42,038 bases of DNA. It comes from Candidatus Aenigmatarchaeota archaeon (GTDB lineage: Archaea > Aenigmatarchaeota > Aenigmatarchaeia > CG10238-14 > SCSR01). The translations under genes were made by a program, and so were the position numbers. Positions 1 to 16,796 of the stretch are shown one piece after another; the first letter of the stretch is position 1, and the number at the start of each line of letters is the position of its first letter. The notes under the pieces were generated by a model. It saw only the letters and a list, made by a program, of their open reading frames with translations. It made no database searches and had not been told where the DNA came from. The stretch covers positions 76,024-118,061 of the forward strand of contig JAWCME010000001.1 of the NCBI GenBank assembly GCA_039091335.1. Direction: 5' to 3'.

Positions 1-1371
1 GAAATACTTGAAAAATCTATAAAAATTGGTTCAAAATATTTGCTTTTTCATTCCTCTGAATCAGATCCGTTCACATTGCTTGCACTTAGGACACAACCTG
101 CAGACATTGTTGATTTTTATGGAAGACCTTTTAGTGAATTCTTAAAAGAAAACGAATGGCTTCTTGACTGGATTATGGGCGAGGGAGAATGGAAGGATAA
201 AGAGGGGGGGCAATTCATATGGGTAGAAATACTACATAGAACACTTAAAAATTATTTGGCTCTTATTATGGAAGAGAAAAAGGAAAGATACATAATGGAA
301 GAGAAAAAGGAACCCTCAGAGGAATGGCTAGAAGAAGTAATAAAAAGGGAGAGAAAAAGTCTGAGGGAATATTTCGTGGATTTGGTTTCTTCAAGGGCAT
401 TGCATTATGGTCCTGAAAGATGGGCATATTATTTAATAGCAAAATGGATGGAAAAAAACAAAGAAAAAGAACCACTTTGGGAAAAAATTGTTAGAACCAA
501 CATAGAGTTTTTTGCAAAAAGAGATGGTATGAGTTTAGAAGAATGGGCAGAAAAAAACAAAATAAACCTTCAAAACTTATCTATAGACGATAAATTTTTT
601 AGGGAGCATACAGAGCTTTGGGTTCCTGCTGTTTCTGCAAAGTACATCTGGGGGCATCTAAACCCAATAGATCCTAAGTTTAAAGACCCAAAAAAATATA
701 TTGAAAATTCTGGTATTGTTTTGGTACTTGAATCGCCAATGGGAGGGAGAGGAATAGAAGAGTGGTTAAGGTTTTATAATCCAGCCCATATTTACCATCT
801 TGCAGAAATTGTTGGAAAAAAATACATTCAAATTGCTCTTGATTTAGAACACATGCTAAGCTTAAGACTTGATCCAGAAATTGTAATAGATTTGTTTCCA
901 AAAAATGGAGGAGAGTATGTAAAGGTAATACACGCAGGCTGGCCTTCTACCTTAGCTCCTGCCCATGTTCCGATTCCTCTTGGATCCGAACAACAACAGT
1001 ACCTTTACAAAATCTATTACAAGCTAAGAGAAAAGGGGTTTGGTTTAGATCCCAAGGAGGATGTATACATAATATTTGAAAGGGGACCATTTCCGATCCA
1101 ACAAACTATTGTTGCTCTTAAAAAGATAGTTGAGTTTTTGGAAAAAAACATTAAACCAGAAGATTTGATAAAATATCCTGAATTTTTTGGAATAGAAATG
1201 AAAGAAATCGCCTCTTTCGAAAGACAAAAGGCTATCATCTCAGAACATTTTTTTGATCCACTAAAGGATTTGTTGGCAGTGCCAGAAGAAAAATGGTCTT
1301 TTCTTGGAAAGGAGGCAATGGGAAAACCTGGTGTAACAGGAGAAAAATGGGAAAAAGAAGAATTGAAATAA
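1..1371 (+). CDS. 5'-partial xylose-isomerase/AP-endonuclease-2-like TIM-barrel protein
   Basis: Frame is open from base 1 (EILEKSIKIGSKYLLFHSSE...). Motifs FHSSE, LESP, ALDLEH, VIHAG..AH and FERG resemble metal-site motifs of AP2Ec-like TIM barrels common in DPANN. Confidence 0.55.
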   Translation, partial: EILEKSIKIGSKYLLFHSSESDPFTLLALRTQPADIVDFYGRPFSEFLKENEWLLDWIMGEGEWKDKEGGQFIWVEILHRTLKNYLALIMEEKKERYIMEEKKEPSEEWLEEVIKRERKSLREYFVDLVSSRALHYGPERWAYYLIAKWMEKNKEKEPLWEKIVRTNIEFFAKRDGMSLEEWAEKNKINLQNLSIDDKFFREHTELWVPAVSAKYIWGHLNPIDPKFKDPKKYIENSGIVLVLESPMGGRGIEEWLRFYNPAHIYHLAEIVGKKYIQIALDLEHMLSLRLDPEIVIDLFPKNGGEYVKVIHAGWPSTLAPAHVPIPLGSEQQQYLYKIYYKLREKGFGLDPKEDVYIIFERGPFPIQQTIVALKKIVEFLEKNIKPEDLIKYPEFFGIEMKEIASFERQKAIISEHFFDPLKDLLAVPEEKWSFLGKEAMGKPGVTGEKWEKEELK

Positions 1372-8263: not shown

Positions 8264-8362
8264 AATGTTCCCCTTTAATCAGTGGACACCTGCACCCTTG
8301 GCTGCTACTGCACAGCCAGGAGGGGGAAAGCCGACAGCGACGCACCAACGCGCCGGGTCAAT

Positions 8363-8399
8363 TTATCTCGCTTCTGGGAATCGAAGACTCCATAAAGCT
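8363..8399 (-). other. 23S intron, 37 nt, ~2477/2478 (H89), relaxed BHB
   Basis: Removal restores GUCCACAUUGAC; central helix GUCC/AGAU has one mismatch. Confidence 0.8.
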
Positions 8400-8571
8400 G
8401 TGGACTTTCACCGGCCACGGGCCCATTATCCCCGAGGTAGCTTTTCTGATACCGCTCACTCCCATCAAGGGAAATGAACGTCTCGTTAGCCCATGCTTTC
8501 GCAGCTGGACTTCTCGCTTTGTGAAGTCCAGTCAGGCTGGCTTTTGCGCTTACACTCTACTCAGGATTTCT

Positions 8572-8657
8572 TTAGGGTGATAGAAGTTAATTCATTAGCT
8601 ACCTCACTTCTCATCTTAAATCAATCTGGAGCAGTATAATCATTCAACTTCTATCAT
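8572..8657 (-). other. 23S BHB intron, 86 nt, ~2306/2307 (H84), containing box C/D motifs
   Basis: Central helix AGGG/CCCU, 11-bp stem UGAUAGAAGUU/AACUUCUAUCA; removal restores GGGUCAGAAAUCC. Confidence 0.92.
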
Positions 8658-9662
8658 GACCCTGATGAGCCAACCTTTGGGCACCCTTGATCTCTTGTCA
8701 AGGGTGTACCGCCCCAGCCGAACTGCCCGCCAGATGCTGTCCTCTTTCGAGTTAGCGATTCGGTTGAGGAGGGGTGGTGTTACACTTTCCTCTCAGCTTT
8801 TGCCCGGAGGCTAAGCCTAATAGCGAGTACCACCTACGCTCTGCAACCGCAACCGAATCGCAACATCAAGCTGCAGTAAAGCTCTACGGGGTCTTCGTTT
8901 CCCACTCGAGGTCTCTGGCCTATTCACCAGAACAGCAATTTCGCTGGGTCCCAGCCTAGGACAGCGAGGAAGTCGTTACGCCATTGAGACGGGCCGTCAA
9001 TTAAACGGCAAGGGATTACGCTACTTTACGACGGTCAGAGTTACCGCCGCCGTTTACCGGGGCTTCTTCCTGTTGGACCAGGCTTTCACACACCGGCACT
9101 GGGCAGGCATCAGAGACTGTACACATGCTTTCGCACTTGCAGTCTCCTATGTTTTTGTTAAACAGTCGCTTCCTCCTTGTCACTGCGACCTGCTGTCCCA
9201 CCCCACTTGCCCTGCTTAGCAGGACTTGTGGTTAGAGACTACAGGCACCCCTTCTAGCTAACATACGGGGCCAATTTGCCGATTTCCCTAGGCTGGGTTC
9301 TCCCAACAGGCCATTGCCTTCTCAGCAAGCATACCTGTGTCGGTTCTCGGTACGGTCATGAAGGATCCGTTGAAGTTCTTTTTCACGGACTCCAGGAATC
9401 GGTCGAACTTCGCATACGCGAAGCTATTCCCACTTTCATCTGCTTCTCCTCTTTATGAGACTCCACAGACTTCAGTGGTTAACTTGCGTCGACCTATCCC
9501 GAAGTGTCAGAACTTCAACTTGCGTTGCCGCATGTACCTTCATGGCATGGGAATATTAACCCATCTCCCATTTGACCGGTTCGGTTAAGATCGGTCTTAG
9601 GACCGGCTAACCGCCAGTTGACGAACATTGCTGGCAAACCCTTATGCTTTAGGCCGTTGGGA

Positions 9663-9679: not shown

Positions 9680-11065
9680 TTCTCACCCAACTATGCTGCT
9701 ACTCATGGCAGGATCTTCATTTCCTTGCGGTCCACTTGTTCTTACGAACAAGCTTCTACCCACAAGGAACGCCTTCTTACCCTTGCTTTCGCAAGCTTGG
9801 GTATCGGTAACCAGCTTAGTCCCTTCCATTTTCAGGGCAGAAACTCTCGGCGGGTAAGCTGTTACGCACTTTTTAACTGATGGCTGCTTCTAAGCCTACA
9901 GTCCCGCTGTCTAAGAGTTTCCACTCCCTTCTTCACTTAGCTGGTATTTTGGGACCTTAACCCAAGTCCGGGTTGTTTCCCTCTCGGAGGCTGAGCTTAC
10001 CCCAACCCCCTCACTCCGGCCTTCTAAGACGCTAACAGATTCTGAGTTGGACAGGATGGCTGAGCCTTTCGGCCCTTCACCACCCAATCCGTAGCTTTAC
10101 CCTGTTAGCTGTCTCCGGCCAGGCTGTACTGAGGTACATTTCAGAAGGAACCAGCTATCACCAGTTTCGATTGGCTTTTCACCCCTAACCCAAGGTTACC
10201 CGAGTGATTGGACCTCAACATCGGTATCGGGCTTCCATTTCGCTTTCGCGAAACTTCACCCTACCTTGGGTTAGATCAACTGGCTTCTGGTCTTATCCCA
10301 GCGACTTCAGGCACTTTCATACCCAGCACCACGCTCTTAATGAGCTACGTGCTTTTCGCTTTCGCTACGGATCCGGAGCTTAAACTCCTTATCCTCGCCG
10401 CTGAGATAAACTCCCTGCCCCGTTTTTCAGAACGGATGCTAGGACACTGTAAGCTGCTCTTAGTACTATTTCCTCTCGGAAATTTCCTTCAGAGCAGCAC
10501 CTTTCATGCCCTAGCTGACTATCTCCATCTTGGTTTCAGGCTCTTTTCACCTCCCTTTCGGGATACTTTTCAGCTTTCTTTCACAATACTATTGCGCTAT
10601 CGGACTTGGTTAGTATTTAGGGTTGGATGTTGATGCCACCCAGATTCCTGCTCCATATCCAAGGAACAGTACTCAGGATGCTTGGCATTTTCCTTCTCTC
10701 CTTCCTCTACGAGGCTATCACTCTCTAAGGCGGTTCTTTCCAGAACACTTCGAGTCGGAGAGTTAGGAAAGACCCAAGTCCTACAACTCCACATCCTTTC
10801 TTTCTTTTCGAAAGAAAGTTCGGTTTGCCCTTTACCCCTTTCACTCGCCGTTACTCAGGGTATCTCAATTGATTTCTTTTCCTGCGCCTACTAAGATGCT
10901 TCACTTCGGCGCGTTCCTCTCCCTTTCGGGATAGCTCTTTAAGAGCTGGGAATCCCATTGATAGATCCTGGGGTCAATTCCTCCATGCGGATAACCCAGG
11001 CTTATCGCAACTTGGTACGTACTTCATCAGCTAACCAAGCCAAGCCATCCACCAAGTGGAGTGGT

Positions 11066-11102
11066 GTTGCCAGACCTCTTTGACCAACCATCCTATGGTA
11101 GT
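11066..11102 (-). other. 5' arm of pre-23S processing stem (BHB)
   Basis: ACUACCAUAGGAUGGUUG GUCA AAG AGGUC; 18-bp outer helix with 7823-7840. Confidence 0.92.
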
Positions 11103-11114
11103 TTCATCTTTATT

Positions 11115-11176
11115 GGTTTCATATAGACAGTTCGCTCTTCATAATTTCAGACGCTGTCAGTTAAATCATCAACCTC
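11115..11176 (-). ncRNA. Putative dual-guide box C/D sRNA in the 23S leader (predicted targets U2504, A2600)
   Basis: C UUGAUGA (11166-72), D' CUGA (11147-50), C' AUGAAGA (11136-42), D AUGA (11119-22). Guides CUGACAGCG and CGAACUGUCU are complementary to 23S 8331-8339 and 8233-8242. Confidence 0.7.
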
Positions 11177-11214
11177 AGCTCTTCACCCCATACACTTGTA
11201 AGGAGTTGCATCAT

Positions 11215-11275
11215 ATGCTCGCAAGGTGTCCATTTCTTCATGTTTTATCAGAAGAAATGAAAAGCTCATCGCTAA
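11215..11275 (-). ncRNA. Putative box C/D sRNA in the 23S leader (predicted target U2552)
   Basis: D' CUGA (11248-51), C' AUGAAGA (11235-41). Guide UGGACACCU (11224-32) is complementary to 8283-8291. C box GCGAUGA and D box GCGA are degenerate. Confidence 0.55.
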
Positions 11276-11341
11276 ACAAAAGGCCGATGCTACATTTAAG
11301 CAGACATAATGACACCGGCAAAATATTATTTTATTTAATAA

Positions 11342-11349
11342 TTTATAAA
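11342..11349 (-). promoter_or_regulatory. Candidate TATA box of the 23S transcript
   Basis: TTTATAAA about 30 nt upstream of the start of the GC-richer leader (GCCGGUG, ~11319). Confidence 0.55.
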
Positions 11350-11462
11350 GATTACTGTTCTTGGTTTTAATGCTACTATATAAATGGCATCACATAGGAT
11401 GTTGGTCTGTTAATAGACACAGCATGCTTTATTTTGACTATGCACATAACAACAAAATACTT

Positions 11463-12122
11463 TTAGTCAATAAGCAAGGGTTTAATGATTAAATTTTGTC
11501 CTGCCCAATAAACAGTTCCATCATTATCAATTAGATACTTTATTTCTGACTCAGTTTTCTTCCAATAAATTTCTGTTCCCTGTGGACAATACTTGTCAAG
11601 ATAGTTTTTTATTTTTTCATAATTCATTTCCTGTATAATTTCTACAGGAAATGAAATTATTTGACCTGGCCCAAGTCCTTTACATTTTATTCGTTCAACA
11701 AAAACCCCTTCCTGCCTTTTCTCCCACTTTTCATATTTTGAAGTTGCAGGAACAACAAAAACATAAGCTGATTTATTAGGTCCCAGCCAATATTTGTCTC
11801 CATTCCAACCTCTTTTTTCTACAGACACAAAATCTTCAAAAAAATTCATTTCCTGAATTGCTTCTGCTTCACTTAATTCCCTATGTTTAAGTAATTCTTC
11901 TTTTGTTTTTTGTATTATTTCATTGAAGTATCGATTAAAAACCATAAGCGCTTCACTTTCTGAAGTGATGGTTGAATTGGAATAGAAAACTGGAATAGCA
12001 GAGAGAACAAGATAACCTCCTCTTCCAGAAGGTTTAGGTAACATGAAATATGAAGTTAATAAAATTGCTGAAAAAATTACTACCAAACCCAAAATTAAAA
12101 TTTTTGTTCTCATAATTCTCAA
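11463..12122 (-). CDS. Hypothetical membrane-anchored/secreted protein
   Basis: N-terminal hydrophobic helix KILILGLVVIFSAILLTSYFML; N-glycosylation sequon. Confidence 0.7.
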   Translation of the reverse strand: MRIMRTKILILGLVVIFSAILLTSYFMLPKPSGRGGYLVLSAIPVFYSNSTITSESEALMVFNRYFNEIIQKTKEELLKHRELSEAEAIQEMNFFEDFVSVEKRGWNGDKYWLGPNKSAYVFVVPATSKYEKWEKRQEGVFVERIKCKGLGPGQIISFPVEIIQEMNYEKIKNYLDKYCPQGTEIYWKKTESEIKYLIDNDGTVYWAGQNLIIKPLLID

Positions 12123-12304
12123 ATATACTTCAATTCTAAAAATATTTAAGACTATGTTTTTTGTTTGGTAAATACCTAACTACCTGTTTTAAATTTGTGG
12201 AAAAAACAGTTCCATAATCACATAAAAAATAAAAAACCAATTGTATTTTCCGGTCGGATTGAGAAACTTTTTTGGTTAAAGAATATAAAAACTAAAAAAA
12301 CGGT

Positions 12305-13321
12305 TTATTTTAATCTTTTTCTGGGTTCCTTGATATTGTTTTCTACCATATCGTTAATATACTTTGGAAGTAATAGAGCAACTACACCAGGAGTTTCGGT
12401 ATACATAAAACTAATACCTAATTCTTTCAACTCGGTTAAAGTAATTAGAGGCCTACTTTTGTGAGATTTATCTAATATTACATTATACTCTCCCTCGCCT
12501 TTAGCAACAAGCCAACGTACCCTATAGTCTTTCAAACCGAATGTTAATTCATCATAATGATCGCATTCTAAAATTAATTCTGGGAAACTTAGAGCCCCTA
12601 CTTTCTCCAGTTCCCTGTAATTTATTGGGTTTGGTAGACGATTTACAATAAAAGACTTCCCAATAAATAGTATCATTAGTTTATCTCCAGAAGAAATGTC
12701 TTCAATACTTGGAGGTTTTGGTGAACGTTCTTCTAATCTTTCCTCTTCTATCTTATTTCTGGCAAGATTAAGAATTGTAGTTTTCTCTTTTATCGCTTCT
12801 TGCTCATTTAAAGTGTTTAATGATTTCATGTAATTTTTTATATCTTCTTTTTCGGCTCCCAATTCTTCGAGTGCATTTACCAATTCTGAATCTGAAATTT
12901 TCCGATAAAACATAAGTAATCTCTTACGCTTCCCAGTTGGAGGTAAAGTGGTAAAACAAATGTTTTTATATTCTTCACATAATATATAGAAACCCGTTAA
13001 AATATAGAAATAAGATTGATATCCAGGAGGTAGGCCCAACTCAACTAGTAATGTATCCATTTGATCTCTCGGAATTATATACCCTTCATTTTCTAATAAA
13101 TTTTTGAGTTTTTCTAGAAATTCGCGTTTAAACCTTGTCACATACATTTTTTGTTCAAATCCTGAAGGCGCAAGCCAGTAATACGCATCTTCAGAAACAG
13201 AGTAACCAATTGAACAGGGGGTGCCTCTTGCACTCAAAGTTTCTTTTTTTATTTTGAAATCTGGTGGTAGTTTTGGAGGTTGCATATCTGCCTTTGATTT
13301 TGTTTTTGTTTCTTCTACCAT
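12305..13321 (-). CDS. Hypothetical protein
   Basis: 338-aa ORF; no family recognised. Confidence 0.7.
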   Translation of the reverse strand: MVEETKTKSKADMQPPKLPPDFKIKKETLSARGTPCSIGYSVSEDAYYWLAPSGFEQKMYVTRFKREFLEKLKNLLENEGYIIPRDQMDTLLVELGLPPGYQSYFYILTGFYILCEEYKNICFTTLPPTGKRKRLLMFYRKISDSELVNALEELGAEKEDIKNYMKSLNTLNEQEAIKEKTTILNLARNKIEEERLEERSPKPPSIEDISSGDKLMILFIGKSFIVNRLPNPINYRELEKVGALSFPELILECDHYDELTFGLKDYRVRWLVAKGEGEYNVILDKSHKSRPLITLTELKELGISFMYTETPGVVALLLPKYINDMVENNIKEPRKRLK

Positions 13322-13509
13322 GTTCTCACTCTTAAGTAATTAATAAATTTAAATTTAAATACATTTCCTTCCAAAATTTTGACTTATGCAAATTTACAAT
13401 TTCTTTTTTTAAACCCCCTCTAAACATTTATTTTTAAATCTTTGCTTCTTTTCATCTTTTTTTGATTGGAGTTTTTGTAATCGTTTAAATAAAAAAACTA
13501 AACTAAATT

Positions 13510-13833
13510 ATGAAAAAAATTGTAATCTTAGCTGTTTTGTTTTTATCAGCCAAGCTGGTTTTAGCCTTAGAACCTTTTTGTGGTTGGTCTACTTATGCTT
13601 CTTGCTCAAAAGACTCTGAATGTAAAGCTGGAGGTTGCAGTAGCCAAGTTTGTGAAAAAATTGGAGAAGGTACTATCACTACTTGTGAGTTCAAAGATTG
13701 TTATGTAGCGGAAAAATACAACCTAACTTGCCAATGTATAAACAACCAATGCCAGTGGGATATCAAGATAAAACACCACCCACAAAACGCCAATTTTATT
13801 CAATTGCTTTTAATTTTTGAAGAGATAAACTAA
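13510..13833 (+). CDS. Secreted eight-cysteine-cluster domain protein
   Basis: Signal peptide followed by FCGWST..C..DSEC..GGCSSQVC...TTCEF..C......C.C.NNQCQW. Confidence 0.8.
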   Translation: MKKIVILAVLFLSAKLVLALEPFCGWSTYASCSKDSECKAGGCSSQVCEKIGEGTITTCEFKDCYVAEKYNLTCQCINNQCQWDIKIKHHPQNANFIQLLLIFEEIN

Positions 13834-13868
13834 AATATAATATTAAACAATATAAAAATTGGAAAAAT

Positions 13869-14141
13869 ATGAGTAATGATATTGATAAAATTTTGGAAAA
13901 ATATAACATATTAACAGATCAAATTTTTAACTTTACACCTTATGTTAATGTTCTCCTTCAAGAAATAGAATTTCTTGGTGCAAATTTAAAAATATACAAA
14001 GAGTTAGATAAAATTCATAAAGAATCTTCTGAAAAAATAACTAATGTGATTAAAAAGATGGAAAAAACTTTAGAAAAAATTCAAAAAGAATTGAGGTCTG
14101 CGTCCAAAAAATTTAATTTAAATTTTGATTTAAAAAAATAA
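13869..14141 (+). CDS. Small coiled-coil hypothetical protein
   Basis: 90-aa helical ORF, co-oriented with neighbours. Confidence 0.55.
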   Translation: MSNDIDKILEKYNILTDQIFNFTPYVNVLLQEIEFLGANLKIYKELDKIHKESSEKITNVIKKMEKTLEKIQKELRSASKKFNLNFDLKK

Positions 14142-14147
14142 TAAATA

Positions 14148-14513
14148 ATGAATTTTGACGTACTATTCCGAATAGCTGAAATGTTTGGATTGCCCTTTTA
14201 TTTTCTTGAGTGGCCTTTGATCCTAACAAATTTAATAATACCATTCGTAATTTTCGCTTATGCACTTGAATGTATTATGGAAAAAATAAGGATATTTTAT
14301 AACCCAAAAGTTAATTTGGCAATTGCTATAGCAATTTCATTCTGTATGCTCCCTTTCATACCAATGTTGAGTTTTGTTATGGCTCCGTCTTCTATTTTTG
14401 TTATCGGTTTTTTAAAAATTGGTGGGGCAAAAGGATTTGTTCTTGGTATGGTCTTAGCTGCTTTATATTGGATTTTTATTCCAGTTTTGATAATTATCCT
14501 TTCCCAATTTTAA
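14148..14513 (+). CDS. Small integral membrane protein
   Basis: Three to four hydrophobic segments. Confidence 0.7.
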   Translation: MNFDVLFRIAEMFGLPFYFLEWPLILTNLIIPFVIFAYALECIMEKIRIFYNPKVNLAIAIAISFCMLPFIPMLSFVMAPSSIFVIGFLKIGGAKGFVLGMVLAALYWIFIPVLIIILSQF

Positions 14514-14585
14514 TACTTTTTTTAATTTCTTTGAATTTAATATTTTTACCTTCAATAAATCTAAATTTTTAACGTCAAAATTAAA

Positions 14586-15404
14586 GTGATGAGAAAGCCA
14601 AAAAAGGTTGTAAGTCATAGCTTGGCAGCAGTTGCTACATTAGGATTTTTGCTGGAAAAACTTCAAGATACTCTTTTACCGGAAGAATATAATATCAAAA
14701 GTGGTACACTTAAAGGATTTCACGACGTGTCACATTCTATAGCAAACATAGAAAATATATTTAGCCTTAATGAAATGAAAAAGGATAGGTTTTATATGGA
14801 TGGTGTTGACCCGACATTGATATTAAGAAAAACTTTTGCAAACATTTTTGATTCGATAATAATAGGTTTCCCTCTTTGGAACTCAATAACAAAATCATTA
14901 TTTGGAACGCCTATATGGGTTCCTTTTTATATGCAAACCACAACTTTTATGCGATTTGGTTGGGATTTTTTATACATAGCAAAATCTTTTGCTTCAAGAG
15001 CAAGAGAAATTTCTGAAAAATATAGTGCCTTAGAAGCAAAAAAGTTTATGAGAATTGAAAACATTTTGGAAAAAAGTAGGGCTGGACTTAAAATAGCAAC
15101 CCAGGCATTTGACTATTTAAACTACAGAGAAATTTTGGAATGGTATAAAAGGAGAAAGGAAAGGGGGGAACAGCCCTCAGAATACACAATTAATGAAAAG
15201 CTTGTTATAGACAAAAAGAGTATGTATAAAGATATACTAATGGGTGAAGCTAAACTCTTCTTGGAGTTTGCAGAAAATGTTTTAGACCATTGGCGTCGTT
15301 TATATAAAGAAGTGGGAATAAAAGAAGGACTCAATAGAATCATAAAAGAATATAGAAAAAAGGAAGAAATAATCTATAGTTACTTAAACCCTAAAAATAA
15401 TTGA
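14586..15404 (+). CDS. Hypothetical protein
   Basis: 272-aa ORF; no family recognised. Confidence 0.65.
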   Translation: MMRKPKKVVSHSLAAVATLGFLLEKLQDTLLPEEYNIKSGTLKGFHDVSHSIANIENIFSLNEMKKDRFYMDGVDPTLILRKTFANIFDSIIIGFPLWNSITKSLFGTPIWVPFYMQTTTFMRFGWDFLYIAKSFASRAREISEKYSALEAKKFMRIENILEKSRAGLKIATQAFDYLNYREILEWYKRRKERGEQPSEYTINEKLVIDKKSMYKDILMGEAKLFLEFAENVLDHWRRLYKEVGIKEGLNRIIKEYRKKEEIIYSYLNPKNN

Positions 15405-15424
15405 GAATTAATTTAAAAAAATAA

Positions 15425-15527
15425 TGGACCGGCGGGGATTTGAACCCCGAGCTTGCAGAGGTTTAAACTTCTCCGCTTTGCATTCGCCTTTTTATAGAGC
15501 GGCGATCTACCATTGATCTACCGGCCC
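15425..15527 (-). tRNA. tRNA-Ala(UGC) with introns at 33/34 (15483-15495) and 45/46 (15453-15470)
   Basis: G3.U70 acceptor pair, A73. Central helices CGCU/GGCG and GCGG/CUGC; the spliced form is a normal cloverleaf. Confidence 0.92.
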
Positions 15528-15841
15528 TCCGTTTAAATTAATTATTATCTTTCTGAATACTCAAAAGTATGTTTGAAGCTTTCCGATTTACTCTGTAACA
15601 CCAACCAGTTTAATTTCTTTTTATTTTTGAAACTTTTAAAGAGTATCTTATTTTTTTCAAAATAAAAGAAATTAAAATAATCTTTTGATGCTTCTGGTGG
15701 TCATTAAAAAGATGAATAAAATTTTTTTCTTCCATTTAGCTTGTTGAAAAGATGAATAAAGTGATAGGAAATTTCTATTTTTTATCTCTTTGTTTTTCTG
15801 GAGGAGTAATTAATTTAAAGATTAGAAATATTTAATCGATT

Positions 15842-16600
15842 ATGCCATTAGTAACGATTCATTTCCATACAAAAGAGGGAGAAAGAATTAACTTGGGGAA
15901 AGATTCGAAGCAATTGGCAAGAGATTTTGAAAAAAGTAAAGTTGATTATCTAATTCTTACAGACAAAGTTAGAGCAGGTGAAACCCCTGATGCTCCAATA
16001 AAGACATTCGAAAAAATAAAATCATATCTTAGAACAAAAGGGGAGGGATTGCTTTTTGGTTTAGAATTTTTGACTTATGATAATTCTCATCTCTTGGGCT
16101 TATGCCTAGACCAAGAAAAATGGAAAAATAAAAGAGCACCAAAAAAATTGGAAGAAATTTGCACTGCAATAGAAAAAACAAACGGGATTATAGCAGTACC
16201 GCACCAGTTTGGGCCCTGTGGTTTAAAAGAAAGGGTTTCAGTAATAGAGAAAATGTATGAAAGCGGTGAAATTGGACACAGACCATTAATAGAAATTAGC
16301 TATTACCTTGAAACACTTTCTTTTTTAGATAGAAGACTTTCAAAAATAAATCAAAAATCACTAAATTATGCTAGAAAAAATAATTATCCAATATTTTCAG
16401 GTCTTGATTCTAGGTTTAGAGACTTCACTCAAGCTTATAATTTCTGCGATGTAGAGCCAGAAATTGCACTTAAAAAAGCTTCACAATCTGGTTTTAAAAA
16501 TAATTGTTTAATTCCTTACATTAGTCTTTCTAGAGTTCCTATGGTTAGAGAAACACTTTATTTAGTTAGAGATTGGTGTGTTGATTTTTTAAGAAAATAA
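15842..16600 (+). CDS. PHP-domain protein (metal ligands partly degenerate)
   Basis: TIHFHT, LILTD, GLEF, HLLGL, AVPHQF, SGLDSR. Confidence 0.65.
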   Translation: MPLVTIHFHTKEGERINLGKDSKQLARDFEKSKVDYLILTDKVRAGETPDAPIKTFEKIKSYLRTKGEGLLFGLEFLTYDNSHLLGLCLDQEKWKNKRAPKKLEEICTAIEKTNGIIAVPHQFGPCGLKERVSVIEKMYESGEIGHRPLIEISYYLETLSFLDRRLSKINQKSLNYARKNNYPIFSGLDSRFRDFTQAYNFCDVEPEIALKKASQSGFKNNCLIPYISLSRVPMVRETLYLVRDWCVDFLRK

Positions 16601-16607
16601 TTAAAAA

Positions 16608-16642
16608 AAGGTAGGTTGTTTTAATGTCTAGAGGCTAGAACC
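16608..16642 (-). other. 3' arm of pre-16S processing stem
   Basis: CAACCUACCUU, CAUU and CCUCUAG pair with 18401-18436. Confidence 0.85.
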
Positions 16643-16699
16643 TTTTTCTTAAGGAGGTGATCCAGCCGCACGTTCCCGTACGGCTACCTTGTGGCGACT

Positions 16700-16796
16700 T
16701 TAGGCTCTTGGAAGCTCATAATAAATCAATTCACCTCCAACTCATCATTAATCAGAGTCAAGCCATTTTCTCATATTATTTTAGAGCTTCCAAAAT
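16700..16796 (-). other. 16S BHB intron, 97 nt, between A1492 and A1493, containing a full box C/D set
   Basis: Central helix GGGC/GCCU, 12-bp stem UUUUGGAAGCUC/GAGCUUCCAAGA; removal restores GGGGCUAAGUCG. Confidence 0.92.

Follow-up and report, generated by a model that had tools for sequence, protein, structure and literature searches.

The closest precedent for a guide RNA carried by an intron is that of the pre-tRNA-Trp of Euryarchaeota (Haloferax volcanii; Pyrococcus sR50; Clouet d'Orval et al. 2001, PMC92551; Singh et al. 2004). This BHB intron has a dual-guide box C/D interior, and both guides are aimed at the exons of the host RNA. The tRNA-splicing endonuclease cuts it out, after which it persists as a stable circle. 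Eukaryotic intron-encoded snoRNAs (e.g. U14-U24) also reside in an intron of a gene of the translation apparatus and are co-expressed with their host. Their introns are the spliceosomal introns of mRNAs, in ribosomal-protein and translation genes, and they are matured by exonucleolytic trimming.

Knowledge of introns in archaeal rRNA dates back to 1985. The LAGLIDADG introns (I-DmoI, 23S rRNA of Desulfurococcus mobilis) and the ORF-less mini-introns of Thermoproteales 16S rRNA (PMC4496867) are spliced at BHB motifs and are found at conserved functional sites, two features that the locus described here would share. In contrast, their cargo is a protein gene or nothing, and no non-coding RNA function has been assigned to them. 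A review from 2013 leaves open whether rRNA introns yield functional non-coding RNAs (PMC3608112). A 2021 review lists the contexts of archaeal C/D sRNAs as intergenic regions, positions downstream of tRNAs and tRNA introns (PMC7994747), and a term search of this review did not reveal any rRNA-intron case. The literature searched did not yield any description of a C/D sRNA hosted by an archaeal rRNA intron; "C/D" cannot be searched as a term, so this absence is not proof.

Gm2251 (E. coli numbering) is among the few universally conserved rRNA modifications. In yeast, the equivalent Gm2619 of 25S rRNA is made by the box C/D snoRNP snR67 (PMC11121408). RlmB of E. coli and the mitochondrial Mrm1/Pet56 give the same Gm2251 product, but these are stand-alone SPOUT enzymes working without a guide RNA.

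The locus reported here is an insert in helix 84 (H84) of an archaeal 23S rRNA, which reads as a BHB intron with a box C/D interior. This reading is held with high confidence at the level of the sequence, and the biochemical steps are inferred. Compared to the tRNA-Trp intron, the host is a 23S rRNA, the predicted targets are 57 and 133 nt away from the splice sites instead of a few nt, the boxes are A/U variants (AUGAUUA/AUGA), and the RNA is found either in the intron or as a free-standing gene, depending on the relative. In contrast to the eukaryotic snoRNAs, it resides in a BHB intron of the target rRNA itself, from which it would be released by endonuclease cuts and probably circularised. 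With snR67 it shares an RNA-guided, fibrillarin-type route to the same P-loop methylation, as inferred from its predicted target. snR67, however, is a trans-acting nucleolar RNA with its own locus, and the likeness does not imply common descent.

The H84 insert and its predicted splicing

The window, i.e. the whole 42,038-nt stretch of DNA that was analysed, belongs to a 570-kb archaeal bin (29 contigs, 33% G+C, 87% complete). Its minus strand carries the 23S (11076 to 7849) and 16S (18397 to 16652) rRNA genes, both ~250 nt longer than their Rfam models. They are separated by a gap of ~5.5 kb (11077-16651) with an intron-containing tRNA at 15425-15527; this gap may represent an unusually long spacer, or the two genes may be unlinked in transcription.

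Alignment of the 23S rRNA to Rfam reveals a 90-nt insertion facing 4 consensus positions in the H84 loop, with flanks that align to helix 84. The predicted BHB intron (8572..8657, minus strand, 86 nt) is located between the equivalents of E. coli C2306 and G2307. Its 4-bp central helix associates an exon-side 5' strand, AGGG (8660..8663), followed by the 3-nt bulge UCA (8659-8657), with an intron-side 3' strand, CCCU (8574..8577), followed by the 3-nt bulge AAA (8573-8571). The inner, or terminal, stem is formed by UGAUAGAAGUUGA (8644..8656) and UUAACUUCUAUCA (8578..8590), and closes the interior with 11 bp (8656-8646 with 8588-8578), or 13 bp if one G.U is counted. The complete minus-strand layout is CUCAUC AGGG UCA UGAUAGAAGUUGA AUGAUUA UACUGCUCCAGA UUGA UUUAAG AUGAGAA GUGAGGUAGCUA AUGA A UUAACUUCUAUCA CCCU AAA GAAAUCC. 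A fold of the single sequence agrees with this model of the BHB and stem.

The cuts are predicted after C8658 and after A8572, i.e. after the second nucleotide of each bulge; they are inferred from sequence alone, without RNA data. The predicted ligation product, GGGUC joined to AGAAAU, has the same length as the intron-less alleles, the Rfam consensus and the H84 of E. coli. Intron-less relatives read GGUC[A/G]GAAAUC at H84, which is the predicted junction, within the allele GCUCAUCCCGGUC(A/G)GAAAUCGGGAGUAGAG (examples GGUCAGAAAU / GGUCGGAAAU). Another register (GGGU/ACCC, bulges CAU/UAA, 84-nt intron 8656..8573) was discarded, as its product, GGGUCAAAGAAAU, is 2 nt longer than the intron-less alleles. 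The AGGG/CCCU register gives the exact intron-less junction, and its outer pair covaries. Because this register restores an H84 of intron-less length, the insert is delineated as the 86-nt intron 8657..8572. The first-pass annotation, made on the letters of this locus without comparison, had proposed the ends 8572-8657, and these are confirmed by the intron-less relatives.

A BLAST search of the region against 120 relatives returns three classes, in which the match runs straight through the insert, the flanks abut, or the insert is longer. Homologous H84 introns of 83-214 nt were extracted (n=34), and in all 34 the two 3-nt bulges are retained, together with the 4-bp and inner helices. In the gap-free alignment of 32 of these introns, 97.8% of the BHB and stem cells are paired, vs 34-42% when the partners are slid. 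Compensatory changes occur in 12 of 14 pairs, and the observed covariation is not reached by any of 500 shuffles. All ten tested pairs of the inner stem show compensatory changes, and the outer two pairs of the central helix covary as well (C-G 23, G-C 5, G-U 2, A-U 1, U-A 1). The outer helix on the exon side counts only ~2 bp, which corresponds to a relaxed form of the motif and would therefore require a broad-specificity endonuclease. Taken from sequence and comparison, the insert is very likely an archaeal BHB (tRNA-type) intron; its splicing has not been observed.

Alternatively, the insert might be an expansion segment retained in the mature 23S rRNA, with kink-turn-like motifs binding L7Ae as a ribosomal protein. 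L7Ae is known to bind kink-turns within archaeal 23S rRNA, no RNA data demonstrate the removal of the insert, and EndA, the splicing endonuclease, was not found in this bin. However, an expansion segment need not hold two 3-nt bulges 4 bp apart, as 34 of 34 inserts do, with covariation on 32. Furthermore, the same RNA is free-standing in genomes devoid of the H84 insert, and the complementarity of its spacers to other sites of the 23S rRNA is maintained precisely at guide positions 2-11 and 2-10 (see below). A retained expansion segment is thus very unlikely, and the BHB intron remains the preferred reading.

Concerning the protein machinery, the fibrillarin and Nop5 genes are adjacent on contig 28, and L7Ae is encoded in the bin. 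The catalytic domain of EndA (PF01974) was not detected in this intron-rich genome, the bin being 87% complete. Of the 41 genomes of the family, 38 encode EndA, among them each of the 15 of high quality, and its absence here is most simply explained by bin incompleteness. The gene would lie in the missing 13% or be itself interrupted. In the same genome, outside the window (C25:37091-37729), RtcB is represented by a match to Pfam positions 1-209 of 426, located in an open frame of 299 aa. The gene might be split by an intron or an intein, or the match might be truncated.

Box C/D architecture and predicted guide targets

Inside the terminal stem, the minus strand reads successively a C box AUGAUUA (8637..8643), the 12-nt D' guide spacer UACUGCUCCAGA (8625..8636), a D' box UUGA (8621..8624), the 6-nt loop UUUAAG (8620-8615), a C' box AUGAGAA (8608..8614), the 12-nt D guide spacer GUGAGGUAGCUA (8596..8607) and a D box AUGA (8592..8595). 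These four boxes and the 11-bp stem had been reported by the first-pass annotation at the same minus-strand coordinates and are read from the sequence without change. Both spacers count exactly 12 nt, as required by archaeal C/D RNPs. The C and D boxes each differ from RUGAUGA and CUGA at one position, and these are the two positions that pair in the kink-turn (nucleotide 6 of C, a U, with nucleotide 1 of D, an A). The usual G-C kink-turn pair is replaced by U-A in C/D and by A-U in C'/D'. The canonical stem of the C/D kink-turn is irregular here, with G.A and U.U beside the boxes, or a loop of 2 nt and not 3 nt.

A sequence-only covariance model of the core was run on 118 genomes of the order. 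It matches 72 of them, almost always once per genome, and 65 matches could be parsed as C-spacer-D'-loop-C'-spacer-D after their flanks had been fetched. The UGA cores are invariant in a core alignment of 27 sequences. Both spacers are 12 nt long in 54 of the 65 parsed homologues, the remainder being 12/13 or 13/12. The pair between C nucleotide 6 and D nucleotide 1 is Watson-Crick in 58 of 65 (U-A 40, A-U 15, G-C 3), and that between C' nucleotide 6 and D' nucleotide 1 in 62 of 65 (U-A 35, A-U 20, G-C 7).

A relaxed pattern, RUGANNA-12-NUGA-3..9-NUGANNA-12-NUGA, scanned on both strands of the 570-kb genome, is found at only two places, the H84 site and a 16S insert (16726-16774), whereas 0.075 match per genome is expected by chance (40 first-order Markov simulations). 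With the strict dual-guide consensus (RUGAUGA...CUGA), no match is returned in the whole genome. None of the Rfam snoRNA/sRNA families reaches its gathering threshold for the intron; the best match, sR18 (RF01141), aligns end-to-end over 8645-8593 with 13.7 bits vs a gathering score of 45 (E = 1.2). This lineage uses A/U box variants, and consensus scanners would therefore miss such RNAs.

It might be argued that the resemblance is fortuitous, the insert being an AT-rich selfish mini-intron with UGA motifs. UGA is indeed frequent at 33% G+C, and the shuffle statistics from a single genome are weak (see below). Against this view, the two observed matches to the whole pattern are both located in rRNA inserts, the BHB covaries among the introns, and in more than 70 genomes the boxes, spacers and guides have been conserved, with stems and loops free to vary. 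Chance is thereby all but excluded. The whole interior of the intron is very likely a dual-guide box C/D sRNA, as inferred from sequence and comparison; RNP assembly and methylation are inferred as well.

For the targets, the E. coli numbering was fixed by alignment to K-12 rrlB (2904 nt); numbering on the 2899-nt 23S copy of another strain is shifted by 4-5 and was dropped. The D guide is complementary to the segment equivalent to E. coli 2435-2444 (8433..8442, minus strand), with a duplex of 10 bp including one G.U (8442-8433) that places U8439, equivalent to U2438, at N+5. This assignment, already made in the first-pass annotation, is maintained. The best match of the D' guide is to the P-loop (H80; E. 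coli 2248-2258; 8707..8717, minus strand), where it forms 11 bp, two of them G.U, with GCUGGGGCGGUA and places G8714, equivalent to G2251, at N+5. As oligonucleotides, the target stretches for the two guides are GGCUGGGGCGGUAC and AAAAGCUACCUCGGGG. The G2251 site is located 57 nt upstream of the 5' splice site, and the U2438 site 133 nt downstream of the 3' splice site. Box C/D sRNAs are expected to show a guide complementarity of ~8-12 bp and a target nucleotide that faces the fifth position counted upstream from D or D', and both guides comply. U2438 is, to our knowledge, not known as a methylation site in model organisms.

Within its own genome, the complementarity is only modestly better than that of shuffled guides (D p ~0.07, D' p ~0.02). 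These single-genome statistics would not be decisive by themselves, and the case for the guides therefore rests on comparative data. In 55 homologues, pairability with 2248-2257 amounts to 80-100% over positions 2-11 of the D' guide, and is at random level at positions 1 and 12. Opposite six target G residues these D' guides carry only C or U, with free C/U exchange at positions 6, 7, 9 and 10, and an invariant C at positions 4 and 5. Likewise, positions 2-10 of the D guide are 88-100% pairable with 2435-2443 in 65 homologues, positions 1, 11 and 12 are random (25-45%), and position 5 is A in 64 of 65. Guide and target covary in relatives: at three loci the target change C2254U (GGGGU for GGGGC) comes with a G to A change in the guide, and the target change U2442C comes with a guide A to G change. 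Some homologues have an A.C mismatch at guide position 8. In ~10 relatives, the D' guide is replaced, its new target being a stretch, GAUCAAGGGU, between the P-loop and H84; this corresponds to ordinary guide turnover.

The first-pass annotation had directed the D' guide to domain I, i.e. to the G at 10653. The 8-bp Watson-Crick match on which this rested (UGGAGCAG, guide positions 3-10, N+5 = 10653) is real, but it is second best. With 11 bp, the P-loop duplex exceeds it in length, and also in score (26 vs 21). Moreover, the D' guides of relatives (CCGUUCCAG, UCGCUCCCG, CCAUCCCGG, and others) preserve the pairing with the P-loop via C or U opposite G; the domain I of these relatives was not compared. 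Domain I is thus a very unlikely target, and the assignment is corrected to G2251 of the P-loop, a target kept in ~55 homologues.

A further possibility is that a true BHB intron binds the C/D proteins merely to stabilise itself or to help the pre-rRNA fold, serving as a tether or chaperone without methylation. Both targets flank the intron in domain V, at the 57 nt upstream and 133 nt downstream given above, which fits a folding role in cis, and C/D RNPs acting as chaperones without methylating are known in eukaryotes (U3, U14). On the other hand, the D' positions 4 and 5 that frame N+5 are an invariant C in 55 of 55 homologues, and D position 5 is an A in all but one of 65. This invariance around N+5 is read as a catalytic register, and not as that of a mere duplex. 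Furthermore, the D' register lands exactly on the universally methylated G2251, and fibrillarin is encoded. A role restricted to tethering or folding is considered unlikely, and a methylation guide is preferred. As part of the whole reading, the D' guide is very likely aimed at G2251 and the D guide at U2438; these are predicted sites, in the absence of modification data. At this level, the first-pass reading of a guide directed at the peptidyl-transferase region is upheld.

In some relatives, the targets are themselves interrupted, by a further intron inside the P-loop target or by a 33-nt mini-intron inside the D target, and the guide can pair there only once these have been spliced. Hairpin mini-introns of ~33-40 nt are observed at five loci of relatives between the equivalents of E. 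coli C2440 and C2441, splitting the D target between AAAAGCUAC and CUCGGGGAUAA; the U2438 duplex of these relatives therefore exists only after splicing. Other relatives carry inserts right after GGGGAUA(A). The peptidyl-transferase region of the present 23S rRNA (~8345-8425, minus strand) is unusual too. It reads GGGGAUAAUG (U2452, G2453), and the stretch from ~2452 to 2476 exceeds its E. coli counterpart by ~35 nt and may conceal another mini-intron. The strand equivalent to 2496-2505 is GCGUCGCUG instead of CACCUCGAUG, GGGGAUAAU being common to relatives. A 44-nt insert between 2504 and 2505 was considered and rejected, as relatives conserve this stretch and it can be aligned to E. coli 2477-2511.

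Intron-borne and free-standing forms among relatives

Among the 65 parsed homologues, 36 reside in an H84 intron and 29 elsewhere, as free-standing copies. The latter possess GC-rich terminal stems (e.g. GGCGGC...GCCGCC) in AT-rich intergenic DNA. Whenever the H84 region of such a genome was recovered, it was without the intron, as exemplified by 14 genomes combining an intron-less H84 with a free-standing guide. No genome of the order with model matches harbors both forms. Three apparent doubles are explained by a split match, by a mixed bin with two 23S copies, and by two free-standing copies, respectively.

Full-length homologues, each as a single copy, are still matched by the model in the remaining orders of the class. 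The 13 that could be parsed are all free-standing, and they too have GC-rich terminal stems within AT-rich intergenic DNA. The stand-alone gene is therefore likely ancestral and residence in the H84 intron derived: a free-standing gene in these 13 and in part of the own order makes it appear that a pre-existing sRNA gene entered the intron. The first-pass annotation had proposed that long rRNA introns were domesticated as guide carriers. The carrier part of this proposal holds, with a further C/D RNA found in a P-loop intron of relatives, but the direction is probably wrong, as the sRNA gene seems to be older and to have become resident in the intron later.

In two relatives, G096 (C7:3403-4533) and G084 (C45:509-1691), the 23S flanks around H84 lie ~900-1000 nt apart, which raises the possibility of a large, perhaps ORF-bearing, intron in family f4. 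The guide RNA is free-standing in G096, and G084 has no model match.

Other rRNA inserts of this lineage can be parsed in the same manner. The 16S insert near the 3' end (16726-16774, minus strand) reads AUGAGAA-12-CUGA-UUA-AUGAUGA-12-UUGA. Here it is the internal D' and C' boxes that are consensus-like (CUGA and AUGAUGA), as though this were a permuted version of a normal sRNA. The AUGAGAA box and the architecture shared with the H84 RNA, noted in the first-pass annotation, are confirmed. In three relatives, a P-loop intron of ~84 nt is inserted between GGCUGGG and GCGGUAC; at one locus it lies ~130-215 nt upstream of the H84 intron. It parses as a box C/D sRNA, AUGAAGA GUCCCUUAAGUU AUGA AAAA AUGAUUA AGGGCAUACGGU CUGA, and splits the very sequence with which the D' guide of the H84 intron must pair. 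Judging from the sequences, guide-bearing rRNA introns would recur in the lineage (H84, the 16S insert and the P-loop of relatives).

Proposed mechanism and meaning for the lineage

Sequence and comparison show the boxes, the spacers, the covariation of kink-turn and BHB, the intron-less junction, the conservation of the guide duplexes, the interchange of intron and gene, and the protein genes. The steps of the mechanism that follow, i.e. splicing, RNP assembly, methylation and action in cis or in trans, are all inferred, without RNA data. In the pre-23S transcript, L7Ae would bind both the K-loop of C'/D' and the C/D kink-turn that the 11-13 bp stem closes, and would be joined by Nop5 and fibrillarin; this assembly may occur within the precursor or after excision of the intron. 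The D' guide would then pair with the P-loop and present G2251 at N+5 for 2'-O-methylation, and the D guide would pair with 2435-2444 and present U2438. EndA would cut both 3-nt bulges, after C8658 and A8572, and RtcB would join the exons, thereby restoring a normal 8-nt H84 loop (UCAGAAAU). The intron would probably be circularised by RtcB, as the tRNA-Trp intron and Pyrococcus C/D RNAs form circles, and could keep acting in trans.

A bolder reading, which remains only a possibility, is that the guide acts in cis on the nascent pre-23S rRNA, clamping and methylating strands of the peptidyl-transferase centre. If true, H84 splicing would be enabled or timed only after the RNP has done its work, which would constitute a checkpoint of large-subunit maturation, and every rRNA molecule would supply its own stoichiometric guide. 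Together with the guides of the 16S and P-loop introns, part of the guide set would have moved into the rRNA gene in these reduced genomes.

At the strength of the preferred reading, an archaeal rRNA intron is given a likely job for the first time, that of carrying a conserved guide cargo aimed at its host rRNA, including the Gm2251 site. For annotation, it is a warning that rRNA "insertions" of DPANN archaea can hide sRNA genes with non-consensus A/U-rich boxes. The RNA would be a prokaryotic counterpart of the eukaryotic intronic snoRNAs, reached via a different splicing system. As closely related genomes carry the guide now in the intron, now as a free-standing gene, the family offers a natural experiment on the movement of guide genes into introns. 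For the organism, whose genome is very small, such a cargo would provide a selective reason to retain an intron in a gene that is both essential and highly expressed.
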